Of a stretch of DNA of 64,000 nt, positions 2 to 26,282 are shown piece by piece (positions within the stretch are counted from its first letter, which is position 1; every line of letters begins with the position of its first letter). Position numbers and translations under genes: made by a program. The notes under the pieces were generated by a model. That model was not told the origin of the DNA, did not search any database, and saw only the letters and a list, made by a program, of their open reading frames with translations. The DNA is from an uncultured Alphaproteobacteria bacterium (GTDB lineage: Bacteria; Pseudomonadota; Alphaproteobacteria; RF32; CAG-239). The stretch covers positions 46,766 through 110,765 of the forward strand of contig CASFQO010000008.1 of the NCBI GenBank assembly GCA_949297145.1. Direction: 5' to 3'.

Positions 2-232
2 TTGCCAAATTCTGCAAAAGATAAAAACATAGTAAGCCTTCAAGATGGATTAAAAGAAAGCACAACAGCAAAAGACGATTACTCAATTGGAGCGCAAATT
101 AATTATTACACAACCCAGCAAATATTAAGTATTGTTGATGCGGATGCACAAAATCAACAAACAGAAATCTTAAAAGATCTTGAAACTTTTAACTACAACT
201 ATTTTGGAAAGCAGGCTGAAGGAGAAAGCTAA
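2..232 (+). CDS. C-terminal fragment of a hypothetical protein; no recognizable motif; translationally coupled (TAATG) to the next gene
   Basis: Open frame runs off the window start; stop overlaps the next start codon. Confidence 0.3.
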   Translation: MPNSAKDKNIVSLQDGLKESTTAKDDYSIGAQINYYTTQQILSIVDADAQNQQTEILKDLETFNYNYFGKQAEGES

Positions 233-930: not shown

Positions 931-939
931 GAGGAAATT

Positions 940-2298: not shown

Positions 2299-5200
2299 GA
2301 GTGCTACAAAGCCTAATCCTAAGTGTATTAATCTTAGGTGCAGGAATACAAGAGGCCAAAGCGTTTTTGTTTTTGCCACCGATGCCATGGGATATTGAAG
2401 TAGATATTCCGGGCAATGCTAATAAAATTGTATCAAACATAAAAGCAGCATATCGTCAGGCACAAACCATAAAGTCTGAGCTCAACAGCCAAAAATTGGA
2501 GATTTTAAAGAAAGGACAAGCTTTCTTAAAAACGAAGTTCAATAAATATTCAGAAAAGGGCAAGAGCAAAGTTCCCGGAAAAGGGGCACTTCGCAACAGT
2601 GAGCTGTTAAATATCACCAAAGGTGGATTGGATGAAGAAGAGAACTTTAACGCATTTCATACTCTATTTTTCGTATATCCGGCTAAGAGTGAATATCCGG
2701 ATAACTATCCTGCAGTAAAACAAGCTTATAAAAGAAAGGCCAATGAGTATAAGCAAGATGTAATTATGGAAACATACTTAACAGGACGTGTTACAGAAAA
2801 TTATTTGGCGTTAGTTGAAAAGACCATTGAACGTTTGGATAATTGCCAAAAGGGAATGTATACAGAAGCTGAAATGGCCGAACATTGCGTGTTCTTTGGA
2901 TTACAAATGGCTTATGTAGAACCGGAAAAAGAAAATTTGGACAATGAAGGCAGTCCGGAAGATAGTACAAATCCAGGACAATATGGCGAAGTTATGAATG
3001 CCTATATTGTGACGACCGTATACGATAGATTAATGCGCATTGTAGAAGACCTGACAGGAACAGAAGCGCAATTTATATCAGCTATGCAAATTGATAGTGT
3101 AGACCCGATAGAACCCGAAGAGCAGAGTTCCGCAGAAGAGTATTTAGATAAAGGATATCGTTTTGTATATAATGACAATAAAGATTATGCTTTAGCAACA
3201 GGGACAATGCTCGGGGGAAATTATATCCGCAGCCAAGAATGTAAAAATGGTGGTAAAAATTGCCCAGATCAAAACGAAGATAGAACAACAATTAAGAACA
3301 CAGATGATACAGCAATTTTAGGAAAGCTCCAGCCGATTGAAGAACAGTTAAATCGTGCAATGGATTTACATAATCTGAAATCTCAATTAGCCGAATATAA
3401 AACTCAGTACAGAAAATACCTAAAATCAAAAGAAATACACGATAGAATGATGAAGGTGCTGGAAAAGAGTGACAGCAGCGTTGTCGACTTTTTAAATAGA
3501 TATAGCGATGGCAAAGGCTCAGAAATTTGGTATGGCGAGAGTAAACCGACCAAAGTTAACGATCACAGTAGCCGTGGAGGTTTATCAAAAGATGTCATTA
3601 TGGAATATCAGGAAGATACAACAGATAAACTGATAGGTACGTCTACAGGGGAGTGCGATGGATTCTATGAAAGCTGCCCAGACGGATATACACCAGGAGA
3701 ACCTTGCACATATACGGACAGTACAGGTAAAACTGTAACAAGCACAACAATGTTTGCATGCGTACTTGATACAGTAACATCAGATACAGAACCGGTAGAT
3801 AGTCCAAAAGTTTCCTATGAGCCAAAATTAGAAGAAGATTATAGTATTGCCGGTAGTAATAATACCAGAGAATACAATGAGACAGATTATCTTAAAAACG
3901 GCAATCAAGCCGATGAAATAGAAACAGATAATAGGATCAAAGCTGAAAAGAACTGGCGCATCGGTTATGACAAAATTATGAAATTAACCGAAGACGGTAC
4001 ATTAAAATTTAAACCATGGAACGATCAAAAGAATTTGCAATCAGAATACTTGCGCAACAAATACCGTAATATTCGCATGATAATCAAAACAGCCGATCAG
4101 GGGATGTTATCACAACGTGTTGCAAAAGTTTTAGCAGACGGAAACAACAACATTGGTCCAATTGAAGAAGTTTTACCAGCAGTATCTGCTTGCCAATTAA
4201 CAACGGATGCTACAAAAGGCGATGCCTTTGATAAAGCTTGTGAGGGATACGATTTAAACAAATCTTGTACAGGGAGCGGAGATGAAGCATCTTGCCATGC
4301 AGAAAAGAAGATATTATGTACATGCTATGACTCTGATGGAGATCCATATTCTTGTAGTAAAAAATTAACATGTAACATTAGTGGCAGCAATGACACAGGC
4401 ATAATAACTGGTTCTAGAGAAGAAACTTGTGCTAAAGTATCTGTTCCGATTAGATATAGTCAAACGATTAAAAATTTAACTGGAGGCTGCGATTTCACCA
4501 AAGCCGGAAGTGACTATACCGCCGTTGAAGATAAAAGCGGAAAATGCCCGGGAGAATGGGATTTGACCACCAAATTCCTTGTCAAAAGGTATATTCCGGG
4601 TGTAACAGCAAGCTGGAAGCATGAGGGAGGTTATGAAGGTACTTGCCCAACATCATTAGATGCACAAAATACACATCTATATGAAAATACTCACGCAGCC
4701 GGAAGAGTTGTTGCATCAGATCATTTCCAAGAACTTTTGGATTTGCGTAAACAAGTAGAAGCGAAATTGAAAGCTTTTATACAACAGTATGAAAACGATA
4801 TTAGCGCCTTAAAATCCGAGCTCCGCACAACAATAGCTCAACGGAGCGAATATGGGCAAAAACTAAGTGATGCCACGGATATTAAAAATGAGGCGGTTCA
4901 ACAGCGTCAACGCTCATTAAAACGTGTAGATGCAATCATCTCACAAATAGCAGAGTTGGAAAATCGTGTTGTTGAACTAAAAGCACGCTTGAACGAAAGA
5001 ACGCCAAAGCCGAAGAGCCTACAAAAAGAAATAGAGTCTTTAGAAATTGGTGCTGGTGAAGACTTAAATAAATTTGAAAAGCCGACATTAGCTCAACGAA
5101 TTGGGCAGATTCCGGCACTTCGAGAAGAATTAGCGTACATCTGCTACAATTCGCCAACTGATGAAGCGTACAAAGTATGTGCCCCATATAGAGCAACGGA

Positions 5201-7685
5201 AAATAAAGAAAATCCTTATGATGAAAACACACGTGATGATGATAAGTTTGATAAGATAGCTGATTTACATAAAGTAATCACTGCTAAAAACACGGAAATT
5301 GACAGTGCACAGTCTATGATGAAAATTCTGCAAGATAAAATAGATTCGCTAAATGAACAGTTGGAGAACACTGCAACAAAATTTGCAGAAGACTATATTC
5401 AAAAATCAGAAGAAGGCCAAGCAGAAATAGAAACAGCCAATAAAGTATTTGAAGATAAGCTCGAAACCAAGGAGGATGGCACTGAGCCAGACAGAATGGT
5501 TAGTGAAAACAGGGAATGGTGCAAACGTTATGGTCCAATAGGCCTAATCTGCAGAGAACACAGCAGTGAATACAAATATGACAATTTAGGTTGGACGATG
5601 GCCCGCGTAATGTTTGGCACAGGAAGCTCAAACAACGAAGGCGATGTTAAAGGTGAATTGCCAAACATTGTAAAAGATACCATTAACCAGCGTTGGTTCT
5701 CTAACAGCAGTTGGATTAATAATGCTGCTTCCAAACTAACACAAAAAGGTGGTGTTGTTAGAAAATTTGTGGTTGAAGGGGGAGTTTTAGCGCCCTACGG
5801 CATTCCTGATGGTCTATATACGCCAAGTCTTTTAGCCCAAAAAATAAAAGAAAAATCTGTAGAAGAAGCCAAGACCGCTTTGGCAGAAGGTGACTATGCA
5901 TACATTAACAAAGCAGATAAACTCGTCAAAGACGAAATAGATGCAGCGGTTAATAAAGTCACAGAGGTTATGGAAGAATGGGGCGTAACCGGAGAAGAGG
6001 GTAAAGAAGCAAATCCTGCAATTTATGAGCATGATAACTATGCTGCAGACGGAGCCACAGAAGGTGAGCAAGTCGTAACAGCAAGGCACTATCAGTTACT
6101 GGAAGACTTAAAGAAAGCTGTACATCAAAGTACACTTGATGCAGCAGAGATTGATTTACAACAAGTCTTTGGTATTCCTAATAATATTGTAACTGATGAT
6201 GACTATTTTGCAGCTCTACCGGCAAGAGGAAACTACAAGGGAACAGATACCTTTGTTCAGTTCGGGCGTGAAAATGGAAAATTCATCTTTGATGAAAATG
6301 ACGGCCGCGATTACCAAGCTCCAAGAAAACCATTATTAAATTTAGCTCCAGTAAGAGAAGTATTTTACTTCAGTGCATTGGATTATGATGATGTTCCGCA
6401 AAAAGACGGAAAACCATCATTGTCAGCACTGGTAGATTTAAAATATAAAGGTACGGAAAACGCCGTAGAATATTTGCCTGAAACTTGGAGATATTTATTG
6501 GCAACTCCAAACTTAAGACCAGGCACGGAAAAATATCAGCACACCTTTGTAGAACGAGCATTTGGAGTGGATAAACTAAAGAAATACCTGAATAATGAGG
6601 GAATAATCGGTGCAGAAGAATGGCACTATAGAACCATCATTGATCGAGCAGGCGTATATCCATGCAAACTAGGTGGCACAATAATAGATATTGCCGGCGG
6701 CGATAATGTGGGCGATATACAATTTAAGCGCCGCAGTTCAATGCCCGCAGGTATAACCAAGATTGAAAATTGCCAAGAAGTACTTGCATATAAAAGCGGT
6801 GTACGACACTTATTGGCAGACCACGATTCGAAAGATGACAGCAAATCTAAAGCTTTACAAGGAAGTTTAGGAAATACATCCGAACCAATGTACTCAAAGT
6901 ATAGCGAATTAGGACAATTCCTAAATGGTAACTTGCAATATCGTCCGTTGCTAAAAAATATTTATGACTATTTACTTGATGAAAACAATCAAGAAAATAA
7001 CATAGAGCGTCAACGTGCAGATACGGCAATCTTTAAGCGCAATATCATAGGCTCCTTCCTTGAAGCTGTAAACGCAGAGCATACGGCAGAAAAGTCTTTG
7101 GAACAAAACAAAGAAGATGCTATGGATACACTGAAAAACTTATGTACACAACTTCACAATTTTGGCGAGAGCGTCAATGGAGAAAGCTGTGCAGATAGTG
7201 AAGACAGTGAATGCTCTGAAGATATTGCAACAAGTTGTGCTGAATACATCATGGCAAATGGCGGATTAGCTAAAAATTCGGCAGATGATGTATATGATGT
7301 TGATTGTGCAAAATCAAATACCGGTTCATATTATGAAACTATATTCTGCAAACTTAACGACTTAAAAGATGAGGCTATTAAGAATGCAGAGAATGGTTAT
7401 AGCGATGAAAATGGTGAATACGAAGGATATAATGAAGTGAAAGGAATGACTGGAAACGAAAAGGTAGAAGAACGCAAACAGCAAATTGAAAACTACATAA
7501 CCGTTTTCACAGAAACAGATCCTGATGAAATATCTTACGTACAACCAAATGCAACACCGGAAGCAGTAGCCGAAGATGTGAAAGAAGCTCAAGCTAACCG
7601 CGAGGCATCATTAGATGCAACTGAAGAAGGTCTGGCATCTATGGATAATCAAAGTCAAGCGGTACCTTACGCACCGATATATTAA
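2280..7685 (+). CDS. Giant (1801 aa) secreted Cys-rich, coiled-coil, acidic protein of unknown function, at the position occupied by rvhB9-1 in Rickettsia T4SS loci
   Basis: Signal peptide MVNKQLRVLQSLILSVLILGAGIQEAKA; GGGAGA RBS 8 nt upstream; no TM segments; Cys-dense block approx aa 450-800; long coiled coils (e.g. QELLDLRKQVEAKLKAF...); acidic C-terminus. Confidence 0.55.
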   Translation: MVNKQLRVLQSLILSVLILGAGIQEAKAFLFLPPMPWDIEVDIPGNANKIVSNIKAAYRQAQTIKSELNSQKLEILKKGQAFLKTKFNKYSEKGKSKVPGKGALRNSELLNITKGGLDEEENFNAFHTLFFVYPAKSEYPDNYPAVKQAYKRKANEYKQDVIMETYLTGRVTENYLALVEKTIERLDNCQKGMYTEAEMAEHCVFFGLQMAYVEPEKENLDNEGSPEDSTNPGQYGEVMNAYIVTTVYDRLMRIVEDLTGTEAQFISAMQIDSVDPIEPEEQSSAEEYLDKGYRFVYNDNKDYALATGTMLGGNYIRSQECKNGGKNCPDQNEDRTTIKNTDDTAILGKLQPIEEQLNRAMDLHNLKSQLAEYKTQYRKYLKSKEIHDRMMKVLEKSDSSVVDFLNRYSDGKGSEIWYGESKPTKVNDHSSRGGLSKDVIMEYQEDTTDKLIGTSTGECDGFYESCPDGYTPGEPCTYTDSTGKTVTSTTMFACVLDTVTSDTEPVDSPKVSYEPKLEEDYSIAGSNNTREYNETDYLKNGNQADEIETDNRIKAEKNWRIGYDKIMKLTEDGTLKFKPWNDQKNLQSEYLRNKYRNIRMIIKTADQGMLSQRVAKVLADGNNNIGPIEEVLPAVSACQLTTDATKGDAFDKACEGYDLNKSCTGSGDEASCHAEKKILCTCYDSDGDPYSCSKKLTCNISGSNDTGIITGSREETCAKVSVPIRYSQTIKNLTGGCDFTKAGSDYTAVEDKSGKCPGEWDLTTKFLVKRYIPGVTASWKHEGGYEGTCPTSLDAQNTHLYENTHAAGRVVASDHFQELLDLRKQVEAKLKAFIQQYENDISALKSELRTTIAQRSEYGQKLSDATDIKNEAVQQRQRSLKRVDAIISQIAELENRVVELKARLNERTPKPKSLQKEIESLEIGAGEDLNKFEKPTLAQRIGQIPALREELAYICYNSPTDEAYKVCAPYRATENKENPYDENTRDDDKFDKIADLHKVITAKNTEIDSAQSMMKILQDKIDSLNEQLENTATKFAEDYIQKSEEGQAEIETANKVFEDKLETKEDGTEPDRMVSENREWCKRYGPIGLICREHSSEYKYDNLGWTMARVMFGTGSSNNEGDVKGELPNIVKDTINQRWFSNSSWINNAASKLTQKGGVVRKFVVEGGVLAPYGIPDGLYTPSLLAQKIKEKSVEEAKTALAEGDYAYINKADKLVKDEIDAAVNKVTEVMEEWGVTGEEGKEANPAIYEHDNYAADGATEGEQVVTARHYQLLEDLKKAVHQSTLDAAEIDLQQVFGIPNNIVTDDDYFAALPARGNYKGTDTFVQFGRENGKFIFDENDGRDYQAPRKPLLNLAPVREVFYFSALDYDDVPQKDGKPSLSALVDLKYKGTENAVEYLPETWRYLLATPNLRPGTEKYQHTFVERAFGVDKLKKYLNNEGIIGAEEWHYRTIIDRAGVYPCKLGGTIIDIAGGDNVGDIQFKRRSSMPAGITKIENCQEVLAYKSGVRHLLADHDSKDDSKSKALQGSLGNTSEPMYSKYSELGQFLNGNLQYRPLLKNIYDYLLDENNQENNIERQRADTAIFKRNIIGSFLEAVNAEHTAEKSLEQNKEDAMDTLKNLCTQLHNFGESVNGESCADSEDSECSEDIATSCAEYIMANGGLAKNSADDVYDVDCAKSNTGSYYETIFCKLNDLKDEAIKNAENGYSDENGEYEGYNEVKGMTGNEKVEERKQQIENYITVFTETDPDEISYVQPNATPEAVAEDVKEAQANREASLDATEEGLASMDNQSQAVPYAPIY

Positions 7686-7704: not shown

Positions 7705-8463
7705 ATGGTTAATTTAATAAATCAAAAAATACTTCGGATAACAGATAAAGGAAAACCCAAAGAAGCTCCGGCATTTATTACGGAAGATGTCATAGAAGTA
7801 AAACGTGCAAAATTGATTTATTACAAATGGATAAGTAGATTAATGGCGCTACTTGCAACCATCTCTTTGCTATATGGTGTTTGTGCAACATTATCAATAT
7901 TAAAGTTAGCGCCGGAAATAGTAATAGATCCGCAATTATTTGTACGCCTATCCGATTCTGAGTCTTTAGTCAAAAGGGAGAGAGTTGACCGTTGGATGGA
8001 GTCTCGTGAAAAGATGATGGTGAATTTCATGAAACAATATGTAGAGCTCCGAAACACCTACATCAAAGATGAAAAAGAAATGAATAACCGCTGGTTATGG
8101 GGAGGTCTTGTGTCATACCTATCAACCTATCCGGTATATAAAGAATTTGAAAAGGTCTTTCCTAAATTAAAAGAAGAAATGCAAGAAAAGGAAGCAAGTC
8201 GTTCTGTAGAAATTCTCTCAGTTGAGCGAACGGGCGGTGAAAACAGTAATACATGGAAAATAGAGTTTAAGACGTATGATTTTACTTTTAAGCAAAATAG
8301 ATTAAGCCGACGAGCAAGCGTGAAGCCGATTATAGAAGAGAGATTCTGGACTGCGAACATTCGTGGATATGTCGATCCAAACAGAAGAACGGCCTACAGA
8401 CGCCTTTTAAATCCATTAGGATTTGTCGTATACAGTTATTTTCAAAGTGAAATTGAGACTTAA
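7705..8463 (+). CDS. virB8: VirB8-like T4SS inner-membrane protein, paralog 1 (bitopic: N-terminal cytoplasmic tail, one TM, periplasmic NTF2-like domain)
   Basis: Single TM WISRLMALLATISLLYGVCATLSIL; size 252 aa; conserved C-terminal NPLGF-V-Y motif shared with the second copy. Confidence 0.7.
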   Translation: MVNLINQKILRITDKGKPKEAPAFITEDVIEVKRAKLIYYKWISRLMALLATISLLYGVCATLSILKLAPEIVIDPQLFVRLSDSESLVKRERVDRWMESREKMMVNFMKQYVELRNTYIKDEKEMNNRWLWGGLVSYLSTYPVYKEFEKVFPKLKEEMQEKEASRSVEILSVERTGGENSNTWKIEFKTYDFTFKQNRLSRRASVKPIIEERFWTANIRGYVDPNRRTAYRRLLNPLGFVVYSYFQSEIET

Positions 8464-8809: not shown

Positions 8810-9568
8810 ATGGTAGAGCAGCTATCCTCGGAAAATACAAAAAAACTTTTATTGGAAGGGCAAACTGGAGAAAAGCCTCGTCCTAAAATGGCGCGTCCTC
8901 ACAAAAGAGGTTCAGCGGATGTTATTGTCGAAAACGCAACAGAAAAAAGATATTTATGGACTGCCAGAGCTTTTGCTATTATCTTTGCGGTGAGCTTGTG
9001 TTGTAACTTAATCTTAACATACGTTGTATTTGCTATAATGCCACTCTATCGTATAGAGCCGTATTTGTTTAGTTTTGCAGAGAAAAAAGATCAAATCTAT
9101 ACAATCCATCCGGTTAAAAATATTTATGAGTATAAATACTTAACGGAAATCTTTATAAGAGAATATGTTTTATTACGTAATACCTTTGTTAACGACGTTA
9201 ATGAGATGGAACAACGTTGGGGGACAGGAAGCACTATTCAAGAAATGTCATCCCCAGGGGTTTATAGTAAATTTAAAGAGGAATTTGCTGATAAGGCAAT
9301 TGATTTAATTAGAAATCACAATATTACACGCAACATTAAAATCGCCTCAGTAACAGAAGTTGGTGGTAAAAATGGTGAAATGTGGTGGCAGGTAGAGTTT
9401 AGAGTTGAAGATATGATGCCCGAATTTGAAACACCGAGGTTAAGTGTGTGGTTGGCATCTGTCAAAATACAATATAGGGCCAAAAGGGTAACTTTTGGAG
9501 AAAGATTAAAAAATCCATTAGGGTTTACGGTACTTGATTATAAACAAGTAGAGAGAAAAACAAACTGA
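8810..9568 (+). CDS. virB8: VirB8-like T4SS inner-membrane protein, paralog 2
   Basis: TM AFAIIFAVSLCCNLILTYVVFAI; C-terminal motif RLKNPLGFTVLDY parallel to paralog 1. Confidence 0.7.
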   Translation: MVEQLSSENTKKLLLEGQTGEKPRPKMARPHKRGSADVIVENATEKRYLWTARAFAIIFAVSLCCNLILTYVVFAIMPLYRIEPYLFSFAEKKDQIYTIHPVKNIYEYKYLTEIFIREYVLLRNTFVNDVNEMEQRWGTGSTIQEMSSPGVYSKFKEEFADKAIDLIRNHNITRNIKIASVTEVGGKNGEMWWQVEFRVEDMMPEFETPRLSVWLASVKIQYRAKRVTFGERLKNPLGFTVLDYKQVERKTN

Positions 9569-9587: not shown

Positions 9588-11546
9588 ATGATGAAAAAAG
9601 TGAACATATTATCTGTAATGTTGGTATATTTGGGGATGCTAATGGCATCAGCTCAAGCTCAAGTGACAAAAGATAATCTGGATCAAAATGCAGATCAGAG
9701 TCAAGGAAACTATGCCGCAACCAATTTAAATTATTTAGGAGGTGTAGGGTCCTTAGGTATGATGCAAAGTGCATGGAAAGATCCTTTACAGCATATGGGA
9801 GAAGGACAAACTCGTCCAGGTTATACAAAATATTATTGGACACCAGAACTTGTCTTGCCTGTCAGAGTTAGAGAAGGTATGTATACCCTAATAAATTTTC
9901 CAAACTGGGAAGTGATTGAAAATGTCTACATAGGTGATGGACAATCATTTAATGCGGAAATACAAGGTCCATCAAGTTTGATGGTTTATCCTGATTCTTC
10001 GCAGTTTGTTGGTGTAGATACTAATATGATTGTCTTTGGTCGTTCTGGAAATAAATATGTTTTTTATGTTCAAAGTGAAACAGTTAATACAGATAGAATT
10101 ACAAATGCTATAATAGATATTGAAGTTGTGAAAAAAAGACAAAATGTTTCTGGTGCGTCAGCTATGGGGATAGGCACCGGAGGCGGTAATGGGCATATCA
10201 ATGCAAATACTTATGGGCAGAATGGAAGTAGTGTAGATGCAACATTTACAAGAGATTTACAAAAGGAAGACTGGATTGAAAAAATTCCGGTAGACCCGAC
10301 ACAGTTTCGTTTTGATATAGAAGTATATGTTCCCAATCCCGATGACATTGTTATAGCTCCAGAACGTGTTTGGAGAGATAATATTTTCACGTATATTGAT
10401 TTAGGAGATAAAGCGCTGACAGCAAACCAACGACCGATTGTAACTTTAATCGTAGAACGTTCAGAAACACCCGTTGGTTTTAGAACAGCAGGCCCAAATA
10501 ATCGTCTCATTATTGTAGAAGGCATGGGAGATATGGTTTTGCGTAGCGGAAAAAGAATTGTTTGCTTAAAATTAAGGCGCGCAGATTCGGATGGTTTGGA
10601 AAATACAGTTTATGCGAAGACAAATGAGTGGGATTTACAAGCTCAGCGCTACCAAAATCAGTCTTCAAGTACAGGAGAACCTGCTGAAAATTATGAAGAT
10701 GTTTATGGAAAAGAAACATCAGCTGATAATAAAAAAGATTCTTTCTTTGGTATTAATTCATTCTTTGGACCATCAGAAACTGCAACATCCTCGAAAGCAG
10801 AAACAGACAGTGGTATGAGCTATGAAGATATGATCAGTGGAAAACAATCTACGACGCCGCAAAACGAGGTTAAGTCCGAACCAAAAGAAAATAACCAAAA
10901 CAAGGTATCAGAGCCGTCAACTACAGATAAAGAAGCTTTGATAAATTCGATTCCAAAAGCGAAAACATATGTGGCTACACCGAATTCGGCTCCAAGTACG
11001 CCAGAATTGACAGGCCAATATGATGTAAATGCAAATGGAGCAGAATTAGTAACGCCTCAGTATGGTAATAAAAAAGAGGATACCATAACATACCAAAAGG
11101 ATGAACAACAAAGCTTGCAAAATTCTAACGTTGCTCCAAAACTTGGTAATTCTAGCAATAACTCTAGTCCTGTTTTGATTACACCAAAGGATGAAAATTT
11201 GGCCAAACAGAACTCTTTGGTTTCTGCGGAAACAGAAGCTCTCTTGAAAGAATTCAGGGACGGAAAGGTTTTTGAAAATACAGATGAAAGTAATATTTCT
11301 ATAGAATTAGGAACAGATAAAGACGTAAATAATCTGGAAAAATTATGGAATGATATTTCTAAAAATTACTCAGCAACATTGGGTAGATATCAACCATTTT
11401 ATTCTGTAGATACACCGGCAGACGGTCAAGGAAAAGAGGTCTTTCACCTGCGAGTAGGACCTGTAAAATCTCTGGAAGAAGGAGATAATATTTGCAGCCA
11501 ATTAGGGCGTAATGGAATATTTTGTAGTGTGGTTAGAATACAATGA
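9588..11546 (+). CDS. virB9: VirB9-like T4SS outer-membrane core protein, extended by a ~250-aa S/T/N/Q-rich low-complexity linker and a C-terminal SPOR-like peptidoglycan-binding domain
   Basis: Signal peptide MMKKVNILSVMLVYLGMLMASAQA; VirB9/TrbG/CagX-like beta-rich core approx aa 75-330 (…RFDIEVYVPNPDDIVIAPERVW…IVCLKLR); C-terminus …FHLRVGPVKSLEEGDNICSQLGRNGIFCSVVRI matches the SPOR consensus. Confidence 0.75.
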   Translation: MMKKVNILSVMLVYLGMLMASAQAQVTKDNLDQNADQSQGNYAATNLNYLGGVGSLGMMQSAWKDPLQHMGEGQTRPGYTKYYWTPELVLPVRVREGMYTLINFPNWEVIENVYIGDGQSFNAEIQGPSSLMVYPDSSQFVGVDTNMIVFGRSGNKYVFYVQSETVNTDRITNAIIDIEVVKKRQNVSGASAMGIGTGGGNGHINANTYGQNGSSVDATFTRDLQKEDWIEKIPVDPTQFRFDIEVYVPNPDDIVIAPERVWRDNIFTYIDLGDKALTANQRPIVTLIVERSETPVGFRTAGPNNRLIIVEGMGDMVLRSGKRIVCLKLRRADSDGLENTVYAKTNEWDLQAQRYQNQSSSTGEPAENYEDVYGKETSADNKKDSFFGINSFFGPSETATSSKAETDSGMSYEDMISGKQSTTPQNEVKSEPKENNQNKVSEPSTTDKEALINSIPKAKTYVATPNSAPSTPELTGQYDVNANGAELVTPQYGNKKEDTITYQKDEQQSLQNSNVAPKLGNSSNNSSPVLITPKDENLAKQNSLVSAETEALLKEFRDGKVFENTDESNISIELGTDKDVNNLEKLWNDISKNYSATLGRYQPFYSVDTPADGQGKEVFHLRVGPVKSLEEGDNICSQLGRNGIFCSVVRIQ

Positions 11547-14500
11547 GCGAGAATACTCGGTTTGAAGAATATGAGAGAAAAACCCGTAAGATAATTTTCA
11601 TCATAGGAATTATCGCGTTCTTTTTCTTTCTGTTTGGACTATTAGTAATATCATCAGAGACTGAGGTCTACAATCCGGAAGAAGCTACCCCTGACTTTGT
11701 AGAAAATCAAAACATACTACCTGAAATAACAACAGATACAGGGCCTATATTTGTTGACACAGAAGCCACAACAGGAGAAAGTAAAAATAAACCCATAAAA
11801 GTTACACCTGCACAGATAAATATGAATAAATTTATTTTAGGTGTAGATACGCAAAACCAAAGTGTTCTAACAATTGGAACAGATGGTAGTGAAAGTATTC
11901 ATATAGAACGTGTTGAATTGGTGGAAGAAACTGAAGACGGATTTGAATTTCGTGATAAATGCAGAAACAGAGATTTGCGAGGAGATGAAACATGTAACGT
12001 CTTGATCACCTGGGTTCCACATCTTCCGGGTAACGTGCAGAATAATTTTAAAATAATATGGTACGAGACGCGCTTGGATAAATCAAGTGCAAAATCTGAA
12101 GAGGTGAGCATTAAAGGGAGTGCAGTTTATCCTGAGGACAACCAACAAAATTGTCCACCAGGAAGCGGTTGCGCAATTGGCGAAGGAGAAAGTACTGGTG
12201 CACATCGATTAGCAATAGGACCTAATGGAGAAATAATAGGATATATAGACGAAGCAGGAAATGTACACGATAATGAGGGAAATATTATCGGTCGTGTCAA
12301 TGAAGACGGATTGATTGTCGATTCTGACGGCAATATTATTGGTGTAGCCCAAAATATGAAGTTAGCTTATGATAAAGATGGTAATATAATCGGATATGTA
12401 AAAACGGACGGAACAGTTGTTGATCTGCAAGGTGAAGTAATCGGAAAAGCATTACCAGATGGTACGATTGTTAACAGCAAAGGAGAAATCATCGGCAAAG
12501 CTGTTGAAGCAGGATTTGTATATGATAAAAATGGCAAAATTATAGGTCGCGTGCTACCGGATGGAACAGTTGTCGATATAAATGACCCCAAGAAAATCAT
12601 CGGTCGACTAAATGAAAATGGTGAGGTTGTAGACGAAAACGGCAATGTAATAGGCAAAGTTACCTCAGCTGGGAACATCGTTGTAGATGAAAATGGTAAT
12701 GTATTAGGTGTTGTTATGCCAGATAATAGCGTTGTAGACCAAGATGGCAATATTGTTGGCTATGTTGACGAAAATGGCAATGTTTACAAACTTGCAAAGG
12801 AAAAAATCGGCACAAATGGAGAAAGTCGGAAAATCGTGTATGACAAAGATGGTAAAGCCATCGGTTATATCGATGAAAATGGCAAAGTTGTTAAATTTGC
12901 AAAAGATAGCAATAAACCGGAAATAATTGGAAAAGTTGGGGCTAGCCGCCGGTTAGCCTATGATAAGAATGGCAATGTAATCGGCTATGTAGATAAAGAT
13001 GGTACAGTAAAGGATTTTAAGGGAAATACAATAGGCAAAGTCGATAAAGACGGAAATATAATAGATAAAAACGGCAATAAGATAGGCAAGGCCGGGGCTT
13101 TTGGTAAGTTGGCATTGGATAAAAACGGAAAAGTCATAGGGTATATTGATGACCAAGGCCGCGTATTTGACCATAATGGAAAGCATATCGGCAATGTCGA
13201 TAAAAATGGTAACATTGTAAAATTAGCTGAAAATGGCAATAAAGGGGAAGTAATAGGAAAATCTGGAGAAAGTCGCAGATTGGCCTTTGATAAAAATGGT
13301 AACGTTATCGGATACGTAGATAAAGATGGCACGGTAAAAGATTTTAAGGGAAACACAATAGGCAAAGTCGATAAAGATGGAAATATAATAGATAAAAACG
13401 GTAATAAGATAGGAAAAGTGAGCTCATATGGTAGATTAGCACTAGATGAAAATGGAAAAGTCATAGGGTATATTGATGACCAAGGCCGTGTATTTGACCA
13501 TAACGGGAAACAGATCGGTAACGTTGATAAAGATGGAAATATAATAGATAAAAATGGTAATAAAATTGGGAAATCAGGAGAAAGTCGAGAGTTGGCTTAT
13601 GATAAGAATGGCAATGTAATCGGCTATGTAGATAAAGATGGTACAGTAAAAGATTTTAAGGGAAATACAATAGGCAAAGTCGATAAAGACGGAAATATAA
13701 TAGATAAAAACGGCAATAAGATAGGCAAGGCTGGGGCTTTTGGTAAGTTGGCATTGGATAAAAACGGAAAAGTCATAGGGTATATTGATGACCAAGGCCG
13801 CGTATTTGACCATAATGGAAAGCATATCGGCAATGTCGATAAAAATGGTAATATCATTAGCACGCAACAGAAGAATGTAGCTGGAGAAAAAAAGAGGATA
13901 GCCTTAGGGAAAGACGGTAAGCCAATAGGGTATATAGATGATGATGGAAATGTTATAGATTTTGATGGAAATATCATAGGAAAGGTTAATGACAAAGGGG
14001 AAATTATAGGCAAGAATGGGCAAAAAATTGGTACTGCAGGAAATTATGAAACAGTTGCATATGATAAAAATGGCAAAGTAATAGGTTTCGTCGATGATAA
14101 AGGTCGTGTTGTTGGTAAAAATGGCAAATTACTTGGTTATGTTGACGACAAAGGGCAAATTATAGGGACAACAGGCGAGATAATTGGTAAAGTAGGAACA
14201 TCAAGAGAAATAGCCTATGATAACAATGGAAAATTTATCGGCTATGTAGACCAAGATGGCTCTGTGAAAGGCTGTGGTGGAGCAGTAATTGGTAAAAAAG
14301 ATAGTTCTGGAAATGTTATAGATAAAAATGGTAAAATTATCGGCAAAGTAGGTGGAATAAAAGAGTTAGCCTTTAATAATGAAGGAATTTTTATTGGCTA
14401 TATAGATGAAAAAAAACGAGTCATAGATTGTGAAGGCACAGCAATAGGTGTTGTGGATAAAAATGGTAATATTATAGCATCAAGTGGAGAAACGTTAGGA

Positions 14501-17500
14501 ACCGCAGGAACGTTTAAGCGCTTAGCCTATGATAAAAATGGAAAAGTCATTGGTTACGTAACGCCAGATGGTACAGTAAAAGATTTTAAGGGTAACTTGA
14601 TTGGACGTATGACTGAAGATGGAACGATTCTTGATAAAAATGGTCGTGTGATTGGTAAAGCTGGAGATTACAAACAGGTAGCGACAGACAAAAATGGTAA
14701 TGTTATCGGCTATGTGGATGAAAATGGTCGTGTTATAGATGAAAATGGCAAACTGATAGGCTTTATAGACAATGAAGGTAATGTCATTAAAGCAGGAACA
14801 AAGGTAATAGGTAGAACTTGTATTAAAAGAAAAATTATAAAAAACAAAAAGGGAAATATAATCGGATATCTGGATAAAAATAACATTGTAAAAAATTTTA
14901 GCAATAAAGTGCTTGGCACAAATAAAAATGGAGACATTCTAGATAATAAGGAATTGCTAATAGGTACGGTAAGCGAACTCCAAAATGTTGTACAAAAGGA
15001 AGCTGGAAATATCATAGGGTATTTAGATGCAAAAAACTATGTTAGAGGCGATGAAAATAAAATAATAGGAATTGTAGATGTAAAGGGAGACGTTTTAGCT
15101 GCAAAAGAAAATATAATTGGAAAATTAGACACAGATAGAAAAACCCTGAAAGACAATGGTAATAATATTATAGGCTACATGAAAGAGAATAATTTTGCTT
15201 TCAGTACTGATAATAAGCTAATGGGCTATGTAACGGAAGATAATGAAGTGAAAGCCGTTGGAGAAGTGATCTGTACTGCATGCAAAAGTGTCAAGTTGGC
15301 ATATGATGAAAATGGTAATATATTAGGATATATCGATGAAAATGGCAATGTAATAGATGAAAATGGTAAGATTGTCGGCAAGGTAGATGAAAACGGCAAT
15401 GTGATAAATGAAAACGGAAAAATTATCGGAAAAGTCGGAGATGCCCAAAATTTGGCCTATGATAAAGATGGAAAACTTATAGGATTCGTAGATAAGGACG
15501 GAAAAGTAAAAGATTTTAAGGGAAATGTAATAGGATATGTCGATGAAAATGGAAATATTCTTGAGAATACGAATGAAATAATAGGCAGTGTTGGAAAAAA
15601 TGGTAAATTAGCCTATGATAAAAATGGAAAAGTCATTGGTTACGTCGATAAAGATGGTAATGTCCGTGACTTTAAAGGCAATTTAATCGGAAAAGCTACA
15701 AAAGATGGTAAAATAATAGATCAGTATGGCCGTGAAATAGGAAAAGTTGGTGATACTAAAACATTAGCACTGGATAAAAATGGAAATGTAATAGGCTATG
15801 TCGGTGAAGATGGAAAGGTCTACGGTGAAAAAGGAGATTTGATAGGATTTCTGGATAATGACGGTAATGTTGTTGGTTTAACCGATGAAGTACTAGGCAA
15901 AGCCTCTACAAATCGTCAATTAGCACTTGATAAAAATGGAAATGTAATAGGATACATAGATGAAGACGGTACTGTTCGTGATTTTGAAGGAAAGCTGCTA
16001 GGGTATTTAGGCGAAGATGGAAGTATAAACGATATAAATGGCAATATTATTGGAAAAGCGGGCGATTATGCAAAAGTTGTTCTCGATAAGAATGGTAACA
16101 TAATAGGTTACACAGATGAACAAGGAAAAGTAATTGGAAATAATGGAAAAGTCATTGGTTTTGTAGGAGAAGATGGCAATGTTTATGGAAGCAGTGGTGA
16201 AGTTATTGGCCGACTAGCCGAAAAAGGGGAGGGAGATCTCAAGGTAATCAGTAGAAAATCAGTAATGGATGAAAAAGGTAATATAATTGGTTACATAGAT
16301 GAGAATGGTCTGGCTCGAGATTTTGATGGCAACATTCTGGGAACTCTTCAAGAAGATGGAAGCATTAAAGATAGCAAAGGAAATATAATAGGTCGAGCAG
16401 GAGATAATATTGATTTAACAGTAGATGGAAACGGAAAAATTGTTGGTCGAGTAGGTGATTATTCAAATTTAGCAATTGATGATGAAGGGAACGTTATTGG
16501 TTATATTGGTAACGATGGAAAAGTTTATGATGCAAATGGAATTGTCATTGGCTATATAGATGAAAACGGTAATGTCATTAGTACTAGGGGAATAAGAATT
16601 GGAACAGTTGTTAAAAAGGATATGATAGCTATATCACCAGCAGGATACAGTCTGGGGATTATTAACAATCGAGGTGAAGTTACTAACAATAAAGAGGAAG
16701 TTATCGGCAAAATATTACCAAATTCATTAATAAAAGCAACTGAAGGCGATCAAATAATCGGTAAAACAGTTATCGGAGGAATGGCTATAGGCTGGGGCTG
16801 CCAACATTACGGATATGTAGACAGAGATGCAAGAGTGAAAAAAAATGGAAAAGACACCGGATATAAAATGCTATTTGACAGAACAATTGTAGACAAAGAT
16901 GGCAATTATGTTGGAGATATAGCAAAAGTTGGAGCTGTGCGCGATGAAAAGTGTAACATTATTGGAAAAGCTGAATATGACGGTTATGTAAGAAACGATG
17001 CCGGAGATTATGTCGGTTGTGTAAACCCAGATGGAGGTGTGCTTGATCAAGATGGAAAACTTATAGGAAAGGTCTTTGAACCAGGATATGCACTATATTA
17101 TAGCGGAGAAATGATGGGAATAGTCAATCAAAATGGTTCAATAACATCCGGAACACAAGCTATTGGATGTACGAATTTTGATGGAGAAGTATTAAATAAA
17201 GATGGATTTGTCATTGGACAGGTAATGGATAAAACTCAAGCGTTTGATATTGAAGGGAATTTTATTGATAACCTATCAACATTTAAGTATGATAATACGG
17301 AAATCTTGCCTAATACGAAGATATTATTTAATAAATTCATAGTTAATCCGAAATTGGAAATAAAAGGAATTATATTGCCAGAGAGAAATGTTGTCATAAA
17401 TTCGGATGGAGACGTTATAGGACATCTGTTTGCAGATGGGTATATTTATAATCAAAAGGGAATTGCTGTTGATAAAATAGCATATGAAGGAAGAGCTTTT

Positions 17501-18463
17501 TATTCCCAAAAAGCTGGAAAGATTATGGAGCCTGGAAAAGTAGTTGACTTTAACGGTAACTATATAGGATTGGCAAATGCATCAGGTAAAGTAATAGACG
17601 TACTGGGTACAGAATTAGGCCATATAGATGGAAAAGGACGAATGTTTGATAAAGCAGGAGAATATAAAGGAGGACTGGTTAAAACAGGTGTTGGCATAGG
17701 TTATGATGGATCATATCTCGGATATGTAAGTAAAAGCGGCAAAGTTATAGATGTTGACGGAAATGTGAGTGGAAACGTCAGCTCTGAGGGACATATTTTA
17801 GATGCGAATAAACAAATTGTCGGAGAAGTTATAGCAGAAGACCTGACAATAGATATTCAGGGTAAAGTAAGAGGATATGTAAATGCTTTGGGCGATATTA
17901 TAGATGAAGATGGCAACATCATAACAACTATATTGCCAGGAGGCGCATCAAACAAAAATTATAATGTAATAAAAAGAGGGGTTGTGCTAACTTATTCAGG
18001 AAATGTTTTAGGACAAGTTGTTGCTGATGGAACAGTAATTTCGACAAACAATACTAAGATTGGTCACATATTAAATTCAGGACAAGCTGTTAATGATAAG
18101 GGGGTATTAATAGGAGAAATTGCAGAAGGCGACATCGTAATTGATGAAAAAGATCAAGTTGTAGGCTTCATAAATGCAGAAGGAAAAGTACTGGATAAAA
18201 ATAAGACGGTAATAGGAAAAACCATATCCTCAAATTTAATTGTAGATAACAATGGAAAAATATTGGGATATAGTTATAAAATAGGTGCTAATATACTAGG
18301 AAATGACGGAAAGTTTTTGGGAAGGCTGTCCTCAGATGGGACGATATTCAGCCTGACAAATGGAAAAATTGGATATTTAAAGAGCAACGGCTCATATGTA
18401 AATATTCGAAATCAAGTTTCCGGATATGTATTAGATGAAGTAGCGCAAAACCGGAGGAACTGA
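11543..18463 (+). CDS. Giant (2306 aa) membrane-anchored repeat protein. It has an N-terminal VirB10-like topology (short cytoplasmic tail, one TM, then a periplasmic region). The rest of the protein is an array of >200 copies of a ~10-residue D-x-(D/N)-G-x-(V/I)-I-G-x-V module (about 20-aa double units).
   Basis: TM IIFIIGIIAFFFFLFGLLVISS at aa 17-38; ATGA overlap with virB9 stop; repeat array from about nt 12218 to the end; near-identical DNA-level tandem repeats. Confidence 0.8.
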   Translation: MSENTRFEEYERKTRKIIFIIGIIAFFFFLFGLLVISSETEVYNPEEATPDFVENQNILPEITTDTGPIFVDTEATTGESKNKPIKVTPAQINMNKFILGVDTQNQSVLTIGTDGSESIHIERVELVEETEDGFEFRDKCRNRDLRGDETCNVLITWVPHLPGNVQNNFKIIWYETRLDKSSAKSEEVSIKGSAVYPEDNQQNCPPGSGCAIGEGESTGAHRLAIGPNGEIIGYIDEAGNVHDNEGNIIGRVNEDGLIVDSDGNIIGVAQNMKLAYDKDGNIIGYVKTDGTVVDLQGEVIGKALPDGTIVNSKGEIIGKAVEAGFVYDKNGKIIGRVLPDGTVVDINDPKKIIGRLNENGEVVDENGNVIGKVTSAGNIVVDENGNVLGVVMPDNSVVDQDGNIVGYVDENGNVYKLAKEKIGTNGESRKIVYDKDGKAIGYIDENGKVVKFAKDSNKPEIIGKVGASRRLAYDKNGNVIGYVDKDGTVKDFKGNTIGKVDKDGNIIDKNGNKIGKAGAFGKLALDKNGKVIGYIDDQGRVFDHNGKHIGNVDKNGNIVKLAENGNKGEVIGKSGESRRLAFDKNGNVIGYVDKDGTVKDFKGNTIGKVDKDGNIIDKNGNKIGKVSSYGRLALDENGKVIGYIDDQGRVFDHNGKQIGNVDKDGNIIDKNGNKIGKSGESRELAYDKNGNVIGYVDKDGTVKDFKGNTIGKVDKDGNIIDKNGNKIGKAGAFGKLALDKNGKVIGYIDDQGRVFDHNGKHIGNVDKNGNIISTQQKNVAGEKKRIALGKDGKPIGYIDDDGNVIDFDGNIIGKVNDKGEIIGKNGQKIGTAGNYETVAYDKNGKVIGFVDDKGRVVGKNGKLLGYVDDKGQIIGTTGEIIGKVGTSREIAYDNNGKFIGYVDQDGSVKGCGGAVIGKKDSSGNVIDKNGKIIGKVGGIKELAFNNEGIFIGYIDEKKRVIDCEGTAIGVVDKNGNIIASSGETLGTAGTFKRLAYDKNGKVIGYVTPDGTVKDFKGNLIGRMTEDGTILDKNGRVIGKAGDYKQVATDKNGNVIGYVDENGRVIDENGKLIGFIDNEGNVIKAGTKVIGRTCIKRKIIKNKKGNIIGYLDKNNIVKNFSNKVLGTNKNGDILDNKELLIGTVSELQNVVQKEAGNIIGYLDAKNYVRGDENKIIGIVDVKGDVLAAKENIIGKLDTDRKTLKDNGNNIIGYMKENNFAFSTDNKLMGYVTEDNEVKAVGEVICTACKSVKLAYDENGNILGYIDENGNVIDENGKIVGKVDENGNVINENGKIIGKVGDAQNLAYDKDGKLIGFVDKDGKVKDFKGNVIGYVDENGNILENTNEIIGSVGKNGKLAYDKNGKVIGYVDKDGNVRDFKGNLIGKATKDGKIIDQYGREIGKVGDTKTLALDKNGNVIGYVGEDGKVYGEKGDLIGFLDNDGNVVGLTDEVLGKASTNRQLALDKNGNVIGYIDEDGTVRDFEGKLLGYLGEDGSINDINGNIIGKAGDYAKVVLDKNGNIIGYTDEQGKVIGNNGKVIGFVGEDGNVYGSSGEVIGRLAEKGEGDLKVISRKSVMDEKGNIIGYIDENGLARDFDGNILGTLQEDGSIKDSKGNIIGRAGDNIDLTVDGNGKIVGRVGDYSNLAIDDEGNVIGYIGNDGKVYDANGIVIGYIDENGNVISTRGIRIGTVVKKDMIAISPAGYSLGIINNRGEVTNNKEEVIGKILPNSLIKATEGDQIIGKTVIGGMAIGWGCQHYGYVDRDARVKKNGKDTGYKMLFDRTIVDKDGNYVGDIAKVGAVRDEKCNIIGKAEYDGYVRNDAGDYVGCVNPDGGVLDQDGKLIGKVFEPGYALYYSGEMMGIVNQNGSITSGTQAIGCTNFDGEVLNKDGFVIGQVMDKTQAFDIEGNFIDNLSTFKYDNTEILPNTKILFNKFIVNPKLEIKGIILPERNVVINSDGDVIGHLFADGYIYNQKGIAVDKIAYEGRAFYSQKAGKIMEPGKVVDFNGNYIGLANASGKVIDVLGTELGHIDGKGRMFDKAGEYKGGLVKTGVGIGYDGSYLGYVSKSGKVIDVDGNVSGNVSSEGHILDANKQIVGEVIAEDLTIDIQGKVRGYVNALGDIIDEDGNIITTILPGGASNKNYNVIKRGVVLTYSGNVLGQVVADGTVISTNNTKIGHILNSGQAVNDKGVLIGEIAEGDIVIDEKDQVVGFINAEGKVLDKNKTVIGKTISSNLIVDNNGKILGYSYKIGANILGNDGKFLGRLSSDGTIFSLTNGKIGYLKSNGSYVNIRNQVSGYVLDEVAQNRRN

Positions 18464-18464
18464 G

Positions 18465-21400
18465 TTGCGAAAAAAAATATTAAATTTTATCCATATTCTT
18501 GAACTGGTGGTAGTCTGTATTGCCTTCAGTGTGAAGGCTATGGCTGCAGATATTAGTGCACTCAATTTTAATGGAGATTTAATAGGAAAAGTAATTCCTG
18601 ACGGTTCCGTAATAAATAGTGATAATGAGCTTATTGGGTATATGACTGCAGATGGGTTTATTTTTGATAATGATAATAATTTAATTGGAGGCATTGTACC
18701 GCAGGGTATAGCTATTTCATACAACAATAATATTTTAGGAAAAATCAACAATGATGGATCAGTTACGTCGCTAAACGATAGTCTAATTGGAAAGGTCTTA
18801 CCAAATGGCTTAGTCGTTAATGATAATTATGATATTTTAGGAGCCGCCGTTTCACCAAATTTAGTGTATAATGATGGTGGACAAGTTGTTGGACGAGTAT
18901 CAGGCGATGGTAAGTTTTATAATTTATCTGGAGAAAATACCGGATTTGTAACTGCAACAGGATTCGTCTATTCATCTAATGATAACGGAACAGAAAAAAA
19001 AATTAGCCTTATAGGAAAATTAATTACATCAAAGATGGTAATATCGTCAGGTGGAAAATATTTAGGCAGCATAGCTCCGGATGGAAAAGTACTAGATTTA
19101 AGGAAAAATATCATAGGGAATATTCATGCCAATGGTTTTGTATATAACAAAGAAGGGCAGGCAATAGGTCATGTTGTTGATAACGGGTATGCGTTTAATA
19201 ACAACGGACAATACATAGGGGTCGTAAGCTATAACGGTGAGGTTATAAATAAAGGAACAGTAGTTGCCCATGCCATAAATGGTAACAGAGTCATAAATAA
19301 AGAAGGAAATACAATTGGCTTTACAGTCAATATGGCTGCTACAGCAAATACATTAGATGGCAAGTATCTGGGGCGTATTACGGCAGAAGGAAAAATACTT
19401 GATAAAAGAAATATTATAGGAAGCATAGGTGCCTCTGGAAAAGTAGTTAATGAACAAGGTGCTGTTATCGGTATGGTCAATCCGGTAGGTCCTGTATTTG
19501 ATTATTTAGGAAATTTACGAGCAAATGCCGCCATAGGAGGTAAAATTGTTTCATTAGAAGGAATAGAACAGGGAACAGTTCGTCAAAATGAAGCAATAGA
19601 TAATAATGGAAACATTATTGGTAAAACGATAGATAATAATTTATGCTTTAACAGTAATAATGAATTTTTAGGAATAAGCGGTATAGGAACGTATCTAAAG
19701 GCAAATGGGCAGACATATAAAATCTCGCCTTACGGGTATGTCTTTAATGAAAATGGAGAATTAAGCGGTATCAATATTAAGCAAGGTGGTGTATACACAG
19801 AAGATGGAGCAACACTATCATATACATCAAATGAAGGAAAAACCGAAAATACTTCATTAAATGAAATAGCTAAATTTACAGGAGCCGGAATTTTTCTTGA
19901 TAAAAATAATAAGCTATTAGGAAAGATGATAGAAAACAAGTATATCACGAATTTTGAAGGCGAAATGCAAGGTGTCATCAATGCAGGCAATTTGGTTGTA
20001 AATAATAAAAATAAGATTTTTGCAAAAATATTACCAAATAATAATGTTGTTGGCATATCAGAGCGTATTGCCCAAAATTATGGAAGAGCCGGAACTGCAC
20101 CGATTAGCATAAGTATAAATGGGGATTACCTTGGTGCAAACAGTGTGACAGGGCAAATAACAAAAGGCTCCGAAATTGTAGGGAAAATAAGCTCAGATGG
20201 TTACGCTATAGATAATATGGGGGCATTATACGGAAAAACATTAAATATGGGAGCCGTAATCTCGCCAGAATGTAAAGTACTAGGAGTAGTCTCAGATAAG
20301 GGCGAAGCAAGAACATCTAAAGGAGCATATCTGGGGATGATACTAGCCAATAGGCAAGTTGTAGATGAGACAGAAAATGTGATAGGCTATGTTGTTGAAT
20401 CCCAACCGATAAACGGTAAAAATGGAGAAAGTATCGGTGTGGCTAATACATCTGGTAATGTTCTCAATTATAATAATCAAAATTTGGGATGTTTAGACAA
20501 TACCGGTAAAGTAAAAAATTCTCAGCAAGAAATAATTGGACAGGTGATTCCGTATATGTCTATTATGGGATATGACAATAAAATTATCGGATATACGAAT
20601 TTTTATGGAAATGTCATAGATAATTCGGGAATACAAATAGCAACTATAGATTTAGATGAAAGCGTATTATCTAAAACAGGAGAAAATATTGGTGTTCCGT
20701 TTCAATATACAGTAGCTTTTGATGCAAATAACATTTATTTAGGGCGAGTTAAGCCTGATGGAAATGTTGTGTCAGATGGTGGAGAAATTTTAGGTACAGT
20801 CTTATACACAGGAGAAGTAAAAACAACAAAAGGCGAAAATGGTTATGCCCTATATGATTTATATGTTTATGATAATGATGGAAAGACAATAGGCTATATA
20901 GCCAAGAATGGCCGCGTTTACAGTATTATGGGTGAATTAAAAGGTGCTATCTCCCAAGGATTTGTCTTAGATAAAAAACAAAATTTAATAGGTAGAGGAT
21001 TGAGAGATTATAATATAAGAAACAAAGATAATCAAATTATTGGATATTTGAAATTAGATGGAAGCGTTGTTGATATTAAGAATATTGAGATCGGAAAAAT
21101 TGATGAAAAAGGAAATGTCATAACCCTCTCGGGTCAAAACATTGCACAGGCTGGAAAGTTGCAATATTATCACCGTCCAGCTGAACCAATGACAGAAGAA
21201 AAGGTTTCGCAACAAGATACAAAAGAAACTAAACAGAATGAAAATATCGATACAATAAGAGATACAAAAAATACAGAAGAAGCAGAAGAAACAGAAGAAA
21301 TAGAAGAAGCAGAAAATCTAGAGGGTACAAAACGAGAACCCCAGGAAGATGTTGAAGCTTTATCTCCGGAGGAAGCCGCAGCAGCGGAAGTCAAAGACAA

Positions 21401-26198: not shown

Positions 26199-26282
26199 TG
26201 GTAATGTTTCTCCTGTTTCTTATTAAATGATTTCTAGTCTTTCTAATATAAAAAAGCGTTTTTGTAAAGTCCAAGTAAAGAG

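Follow-up and report, generated by a model that had tools for sequence, protein, structure and literature searches.

How does a gene in a secretion operon come to carry three tandem copies of one DNA segment, and does the number of copies change quickly within bacterial populations or slowly as species diverge? The question is raised by a giant gene in a 64,000-nucleotide stretch of DNA from an uncultured Alphaproteobacteria bacterium of the gut or rumen (contig CASFQO010000008.1, positions 46,766 to 110,765), which is analyzed here as a whole, called the window, and numbered from its own first letter. The gene (11543 to 18463, plus strand) encodes a protein of 2,306 amino acids (aa), as read from the list of open reading frames (ORFs), the translation, and Pfam; its neighbors on either side, virB9 and virB10, belong to a chromosomal type IV secretion system (T4SS) operon. 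An initial annotation had likened the repeats to the recombinational length rheostat of Helicobacter pylori CagY, an interpretation that our analysis partly supports. We consider it likely that a module of about 104 to 109 aa, which consists of two 52-aa half-units and equals one predicted beta-flower domain, was expanded in tandem and in frame from one copy to three and that this happened in the present lineage alone. The evidence fits occasional domain gain in evolution better than a fast regulatory rheostat.

The array reads A1-B1-A2-B2-A3-B3 on the plus strand, with two types of 52-aa unit in alternation. Super-repeat copy 1 occupies 12950 to 13276 (327 nucleotides [nt]) and comprises A1 (aa 470 to 521) and B1 (aa 522 to 578, 57 aa). 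Copy 2 follows at 13277 to 13588 (312 nt; A2, aa 579 to 630; B2, aa 631 to 682), and copy 3 lies at 13589 to 13894 (A3, aa 683 to 734; B3, aa 735 to 784), with a tail, ISTQQKNVAGEKK, that is the ancestral right flank of single-copy relatives. Tandem Repeats Finder reported a period of 327 with 3.0 copies over 12870 to 13851, and a repeat finder placed long copies in register at 12925, 13252, and 13564. Base by base, at an offset of exactly 639 nt, the copy 1 arm of a near-identical tract (12959 to 13212) matches the copy 3 arm (13598 to 13851) at 252 of 254 positions (99.2%). The tract has sharp edges against diverged flanks and is split into exact blocks of 53, 80, and 119 nt by single-nucleotide polymorphisms (SNPs) at 13012 and 13093, its only mismatches. 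By blastn, copies 1 and 3 are 98.5% identical over 261 nt, while copy 2 is about 84% identical to both (83.7% and 84.1%, respectively, over 264 nt). These measurements bear out the initial annotation, which had given about 97 to 99% identity for copies 1 and 3, about 85% for copy 2, and an in-frame spacing of about 639 bp; its super-repeat starts (12951, 13284, and 13592) are a few bases off those of the A-type units at 12950, 13277, and 13589 (aa 470, 579, and 683).

Chance does not come close to explaining such identity. Exact direct repeats in the giant gene reach 119 nt, whereas 50 codon-shuffled versions of it gave no more than 19 nt, and the other 52-aa units of the gene have a median pairwise nucleotide identity of 53%. 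All 21 exact repeats of at least 20 nt have offsets divisible by 3 and are in frame, and the only three exact blocks of at least 50 nt all come from the pair formed by copies 1 and 3. The earlier suggestion that the repeats are a recombination substrate is sound insofar as the perfect blocks of 119, 80, and 53 nt could serve homologous recombination.

Comparison with the nearest relative dates the expansion. The giant protein of this relative, locus L018, shows 90.7% identity over all of its 2,093 aa, and the only difference in length is one 213-aa (639-nt) block at the array site; the expansion from one copy to three is therefore lineage specific. L018 and other near relatives carry a single A+B unit there. 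In nucleotides, the copies in the window are 84 to 97% identical to one another versus 71 to 79.5% identical to orthologous units, and the three have derived residues in common. Because similarity among these paralogs exceeds that to orthologs, the expansion, or a homogenization of its copies, came later than the split from the nearest sampled species. Copies 1 and 2 differ by 28 synonymous versus 9 nonsynonymous codon differences, and this mostly synonymous divergence indicates that all copies are under purifying selection. The identity of copies 1 and 3 begins abruptly at 12959 and ends abruptly at about 13215, with diverged flanks outside and the diverged copy 2 in between. A simple unequal crossover of two diverged copies would yield a hybrid middle rather than identical outer copies, and the most economical explanation is therefore that gene conversion between copies 1 and 3 recently produced a tract of at least 254 nt.

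Has the same site changed elsewhere? A genome scan with VirB9 yielded 32 loci from uncultured Alphaproteobacteria, for which the named sources were gut or rumen. Wherever a locus had enough sequence, the giant gene was flanked by virB9 and virB10, and the ORF downstream of it encoded a VirB10 ortholog equipped with a conserved signal peptide of its own. At least 24 related metagenome-assembled genomes share the gene order, and the orthologous giant proteins range from 1,990 to 3,151 aa. Lengths were compared across 24 related species-level genome assemblies, with each ortholog aligned to the 2,093-aa form. The base form of 2,091 to 2,093 aa is found in 10 species; shorter proteins of 1,990 and 2,079 aa occur in one species each. 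Longer forms measure 2,195 to 2,199 aa (five species), 2,224 aa (one), 2,255 aa (one), 2,306 aa (the window), 2,404 to 2,419 aa (three), 2,516 aa (two), and 3,151 aa (one). Insertions of at least 15 aa are confined to two hotspots and mostly measure a multiple of 52 aa or close to it. Two deletions, of 52 and 53 aa, are present in L038 instead, and L041 has a 22-aa deletion.

Hotspot 1 is the array site, where gains amount to 213 aa in the window, 206 aa in L032, 157 aa in L041, 162 aa in L043, 419 aa in both L031 and L034, and 1,058 aa in L047. On a VirB9 tree, such gains adjoin base-length sisters (window/L018, L043/L029, and L047/L028) and appear also in L032, L041, and L031 plus L034, a placement from which at least five independent gains follow. 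The distant L032 (about 66% identity) has its own recent duplication at hotspot 1 (nt 1396 to 2003, aa ~466 to 668), in which 296 nt are 92.6% identical at an offset of 312 nt. Hotspot 2 lies near aa 1,040 to 1,140 (aa ~1037 to 1140 of L018, corresponding approximately to aa 1270 to 1340 and nt ~15350 to 15560 of the window); it has gained 104 aa in L023, L025, L036, L044, and L032 and about 312 aa in L027 and L045, and the window is in the base state there. In-frame length change at the array site, as the initial annotation had envisaged, has thus recurred in evolution, in steps near whole 52-aa units. Judging from these comparisons, the array locus appears to be expandable, not hypervariable.

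We propose that the expansion in the window arose via unequal homologous recombination or replication slippage between in-phase units and that the 254-nt tract common to the nonadjacent copies 1 and 3 would stem from recent gene conversion. Only changes of whole or half domains would survive, because these preserve the fold and the reading frame. The outcome would be a periplasmic, possibly exposed, chain of domains in a secretion machine that is longer by two domains. Moreover, because perfect repeats of 119, 80, and 53 nt lie 639 nt apart, recombination between copy 1 and copy 3 would be predicted to create, at low frequency, either a -639-nt allele (2,093 aa, the ancestral length) or a +639-nt allele with five units.

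Several points weigh against this account. The equation of one super-repeat with one closed beta-flower draws on Pfam domain spans and on dips in the confidence of a structural model, and topology and gene context are the whole basis for the function and periplasmic location ascribed to the giant protein. The sharp edges of the tract are the sole sign of gene conversion, to which a complex duplication is an alternative. The copy number in the source population, three or more, comes from assemblies and not from reads, and within the array all of the other same-species assemblies are either broken or mis-scaffolded.

Could the array nevertheless be a CagY-like rheostat, in which frequent RecA-dependent in-frame deletion and expansion within populations generate length variants that tune the T4SS or evade immunity? 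The CagY precedent is documented (PMC3585145, PMC2194252), and the ingredients are at hand: the perfect direct repeats 639 nt apart, intragenic repeats that are all in frame, a T4SS operon setting next to a virB10 gene with the same type of repeat, and a site that expanded independently at least five times across species. In contig L012, which comes from one sample, copies 1 and 3 even appear to have exchanged their distinguishing SNP alleles, which may reflect conversion or an assembly artifact. Nevertheless, exact look-ups of VirB11 and VirB9 in ENA and Logan yielded 17 same-species contigs from at least 10 metagenome samples, and none of them holds a clean unit-number variant; all short-read assemblies break in the array, and the deviations seen are out-of-register gaps, frameshifts, and N-runs at joins. 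On longer time scales, the base length of 2,091 to 2,093 aa has been kept by 10 species at 64 to 87% identity to L018, and the close pairs L021/L022 and L031/L034 have equal lengths; such long-term conservation in many relatives counts against hypervariability of the CagY kind. Also, the gene holds a single long near-identical pair in 6.9 kb, versus an "extraordinary number" of repeats in cagY, and its product is not a VirB10 homolog and has beta rather than alpha-helical repeats. We regard the rheostat as an unproven analogy and as unlikely.

A bolder proposal, to which we also assign little probability, is that the giant protein and the beta-flower extension of VirB10 together form an undescribed length-adjustable stalk or sheath of the T4SS in gut and rumen Alphaproteobacteria. 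The two hotspots would then be selected "length dials" that act on ecological time scales, under host switching or immune and phage pressure, and the system would be an independently evolved, beta-structured analog of the CagY rheostat.

Still less probable is that the number of copies, or the close match of copies 1 and 3, is a product of short-read assembly or polishing and that the true number of units differs. The concern is a real one, for short-read metagenome assemblers demonstrably break at this locus. Outside the array, the same-species contigs are 99.4 to 100% identical to the window. At the array, left-side contigs end at 12988 to 13111, in copy 1, and right-side contigs start at 13733 to 13766, in copy 3; others carry spurious joins, with gaps of -111 and -45 nt, out of register, in L011, gaps of -52 and -46 nt plus a frameshift in L012, a gap of -160 nt in L014, and an N-run at 13732 to 13752 in L002. 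The warning that assemblers may collapse or misjoin such arrays was well placed. The window's exact giant protein is, moreover, absent from the protein collection in which its neighbors are present. However, six of seven unique junction- or copy-specific test sequences of the three-copy array recur exactly in four to eight independent metagenome samples. The seventh, J2, is exact in one sample only, since the remaining contigs either begin at 13193 or have a SNP at 13192. Since the test sequences recur across samples, the array is not an artifact of one assembly, and at least three copies are real; extra collapsed copies are the only form of the artifact left. The window version alone keeps both the reading frame and the strict 52-aa periodicity, and its longest exact block, 119 nt, is resolvable by k-mers of 127 to 141 or by read pairs. 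Two sets of apparent variants, the 2,254-aa allele of L011 and the split ORFs of L012, L013, and L014, were considered and rejected; all are out-of-register joins between contig ends, with frameshifts or N-runs. Gene calls at this locus (2,254 aa; 514 plus 205 plus 1,571 aa; and others) are not to be trusted.

It is hardly credible that the giant ORF and virB10 are one gene for a CagY-like VirB10 of 3.7 kaa, whether united through a programmed +1 frameshift or divided by a sequencing error. In favor, both ORFs have beta-flower units and lie 1 nt apart in adjacent frames, and the N terminus of the giant protein resembles that of VirB10 in having a cytoplasmic tail and a transmembrane helix, which are arguably missing from the virB10 ORF. 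Against this, the split is 100% identical in all same-species assemblies and kept in 14 of 14 related species checked, the virB10 ORF has its own conserved signal peptide (...AxAAD|ISALNFNGDLIGK), and AAC-UGA-G, judged by the known prfB mechanism, is not a favorable +1 slippery site. On the junction signals and the separate signal peptide, a frameshift or fusion was rejected.

What kind of gene, then, does the expansion lengthen? By Pfam and NCBIfam, the operon comprises, in order and on the plus strand, two virB8 paralogs (7705 to 8463 and 8810 to 9568), virB9 (9588 to 11546; a CagX domain and a C-terminal SPOR domain), the giant gene, virB10 (18465 to 22820; 1,451 aa), and virB11, which encodes the ATPase and is the last operon gene (22890 to 23870). 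It is a P-type (VirB/D4-like) T4SS operon with an embedded giant gene, and the annotated setting of the in-frame repeats is therefore correct. VirB10 begins with a signal or anchor peptide, which is followed by beta-flower units that are more degenerate and span about 1,000 aa; beyond an acidic linker lies a TrbI/VirB10 domain (aa 1137 to 1333; TrbI, 96.8 bits). This domain was not found by Pfam or NCBIfam in ORF 11543 to 18463, and the giant protein is a separate protein rather than a VirB10 homolog. The initial annotation had placed the repeats inside one giant gene of 11.5 to 22.8 kb and likened recombination there to that in CagY (VirB10). The repeats do lie inside a giant gene, but the interval holds two ORFs, and the giant gene is not the VirB10/CagY homolog: it lacks a TrbI domain, virB10 is the next ORF, and the repeats are beta-hairpin.

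The giant gene is translationally coupled between virB9 and virB10. Its ATG overlaps the virB9 stop codon (ATGA at 11543 to 11546), and at the junction with virB10 (18454 to 18467, plus strand), a GGAGG at 18453 to 18457 precedes the giant-gene stop codon, TGA, at 18461 to 18463 and sits 7 nt 5' of the TTG start of virB10 at 18465; the two genes are in different frames with 1 nt between them. In the virB10 frame over 18435 to 18467, an upstream ATG runs straight into a stop (ATG AAG TAG), so TTG 18465 is the first usable start. In relatives such as L018, L019, L031, and L043, an intact virB10 start, MK(L/S)xK(T/I)GG..., overlaps the 3' end of the giant gene.

How the repeats fold can be approached from the protein. 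Following a confidently predicted transmembrane helix (aa ~17 to 36) are a disordered linker, a weakly predicted beta-sandwich, and then the repeat units. From aa 222 to about 2283, the unit map holds about 40 tandem units with a strict 52-aa spacing and three 17-aa beta-hairpins each. These half-units make up about 20 beta-flower domains in a chain that is membrane anchored at its N terminus. The beta-flower fold was defined from AlphaFold models; its hallmarks are hairpins that act as "petals" and the tip motif [DNEQ]xxG (Durairaj et al. 2023, PMC10584680). It is without known function and without a counterpart in the PDB (PMC10584680). The giant protein scores above the gathering thresholds of the beta-flower hidden Markov models (PF21784 and PF21785, clan CL0395): Bflower_2 matches 24 stretches with 533.2 bits (cutoff, 38), and Bflower matches with 326.6 bits (cutoff, 25), with a further 251 bits for DUF3659. 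Its units read ...D(K/E)(N/D)G(N/K)xIGxV... every 17 aa, and both the [DNEQ]xxG tip and the hairpin petal are present.

An AlphaFold model of aa 430 to 836 has a mean predicted local distance difference test (pLDDT) value of 80 and consists wholly of short, regular beta-hairpins, as assigned by DSSP. Dips in pLDDT at aa 454 to 458, 563 to 568, and 776 to 781 bound the first module of about 104 to 109 aa and the end of the array, and all three fit the register of the DNA repeats; the boundary of copies 2 and 3 is without a dip. On this model, one A+B super-repeat is probably one six-petal flower. Foldseek found no true match to the array model in the PDB, with template modeling scores of about 0.1 to Rhs, fascin, and propeller proteins. 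The N-terminal region (aa 1 to 221; 11543 to 12205) is predicted to combine the transmembrane helix and about 65 disordered residues with a beta-sandwich that has four conserved cysteines. The low-confidence model of this region (pLDDT, 55) gave faint ASH/PapD/MSP-like Foldseek matches for the sandwich, which are a hint only, and a sequence profile search of the PDB with the N-terminal region found no match. A profile of the N-terminal anchor also matches the N termini of more distant proteins of about 2,000 to 2,350 aa (P0180, P0199, P0200, P0223, and others).

Beta-flower units also occur in other trans-envelope machines. A protein search with the array segment, whose listed matches were filled by other beta-flower proteins and included no same-species length variant, identified them, among the matches listed, N terminal to TrbI in VirB10-like proteins of 650 to 750 aa from other taxa (P0049, P0059, and P0065) and C terminal to the SAF and RcpC domains of the Tad-pilus protein CpaB, again from other taxa (P0095, P0076, and P0060). 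The arrays in these fusions are about 300 aa long. This distribution suggests that the beta-flower is a recurrent periplasmic module with a spacer or wall-associated role in machines that span the envelope.

Some features of the surrounding DNA deserve mention. The SPOR domain of VirB9, which is peptidoglycan binding, lies at aa 578 to 650 and scores 21.2 bits versus a Pfam threshold of 21. Upstream of the virB8 genes, three ORFs in the same orientation (232 to 7685) encode 232, 452, and 1,801 aa, and the last two overlap. No Pfam or NCBIfam family was found for them, the sole match being a faint coiled-coil/SMC-like one in the 1,801-aa protein; they are kept alongside the operon in same-species contigs and may be unrecognized T4SS components. 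A literature search turned up no paper on the T4SS of this clade, and no description of this giant T4SS component was found. The rest of the window is chromosomal housekeeping sequence (rpmH-rnpA-yidD-yidC, dnaA, dnaN, mfd, recG, prfA, and dnaX). The operon adjoins an origin-region set (23878 to 32679) that runs yihA-yidC-yidD-rnpA-rpmH, followed by a recF-like gene, dnaN, and dnaA on the minus strand, and the slope of the cumulative GC skew shifts near 24 kb.

Two more observations concern repeats. An antisense ORF of 159 aa (12985 to 13464, minus strand) lies wholly within the array; most likely it owes its existence to the repetitive sense-strand composition and is not a gene. The only other long repeat family found in the window is a pair of tandem 260-aa ORFs without a Pfam family (41492 to 42274 and 42348 to 43130; region 41428 to 43181), which have in common 300-nt blocks of 94% and 88% identity that lie 856 nt apart. 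The longest exact repeat of the whole window is 135 nt and exceeds any within the giant gene.

What is the significance of such an array? Recombination is well known to expand repeat domains in frame, and the array on its own is therefore unsurprising; its value comes from the context. The array pinpoints an active hotspot in a conserved but uncharacterized protein of about 2,000 to 3,150 aa, encoded between virB9 and virB10 at all of the related gut or rumen alphaproteobacterial loci recovered. The quantized lengths and the two hotspots, with alleles from 1,990 to 3,151 aa and a predicted -639-nt revertant, offer a handle on the role of domain number in a secretion machine. Most of the interest lies in the gene family and its quantized architecture and less in the repeat pair.

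Among known systems, CagY of H. pylori is the obvious comparison. Both are large repeat regions in a protein of a T4SS operon, with direct DNA repeats that always preserve the frame; both gain and lose modules in whole-module steps, and both tolerate varied module numbers (PMC2194252, PMC2581425, PMC3585145). However, CagY is itself the VirB10 homolog, whereas the array in the window lies in a separate protein, and the repeat polypeptide has neither a VirB10/TrbI domain nor alpha-helical A/B modules. The modules of CagY are alpha-helical and contain cysteine (PMC2581425), while those of the window are beta-hairpin beta-flowers. Also, cagY is dense in repeats and varies between strains and within hosts; the window has one long near-identical pair and belongs to a family in which lengths have long been conserved in many species.

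The described beta-flower families (PF21784/PF21785; PMC10584680) resemble the giant protein in the strong hidden Markov model matches, the hairpin petals, the [DNEQ]xxG tip, and the lack of a PDB counterpart. Nevertheless, most of the examples on record consist of one small domain of about 100 aa, and some are lipoproteins (PMC10584680). The window, in contrast, has about 20 and about 10 domains concatenated in two adjacent T4SS proteins with a strict half-domain period of 52 aa.

A third parallel is with core subunits that carry inserted arrays. DotG (IcmE) of Legionella and Coxiella is a VirB10 homolog extended by pentapeptide repeats. In DotG, as in the beta-flower-TrbI and CpaB-beta-flower proteins, a trans-envelope subunit has its repeats placed either in between its inner-membrane anchor and its outer-membrane-associated domain or next to them, an arrangement similar to that in the window. 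The difference is one of scale and placement: those arrays are about 300 aa inside a core subunit, whereas the window has an extra, dedicated protein from a family of 2,000 to 3,150 aa plus an extension of about 1,000 aa in VirB10.

Finally, the streptococcal alpha C/Rib family comprises wall-anchored antigens of Gram-positive bacteria that have many identical copies of their repeats and for which deletion within the host is documented. The likeness lies in whole-domain tandem repeats that are kept nearly identical in DNA through recombination or conversion and that change in copy number in frame. Although many copies are identical in the streptococcal proteins, in the window, only two of about 40 units are nearly identical.

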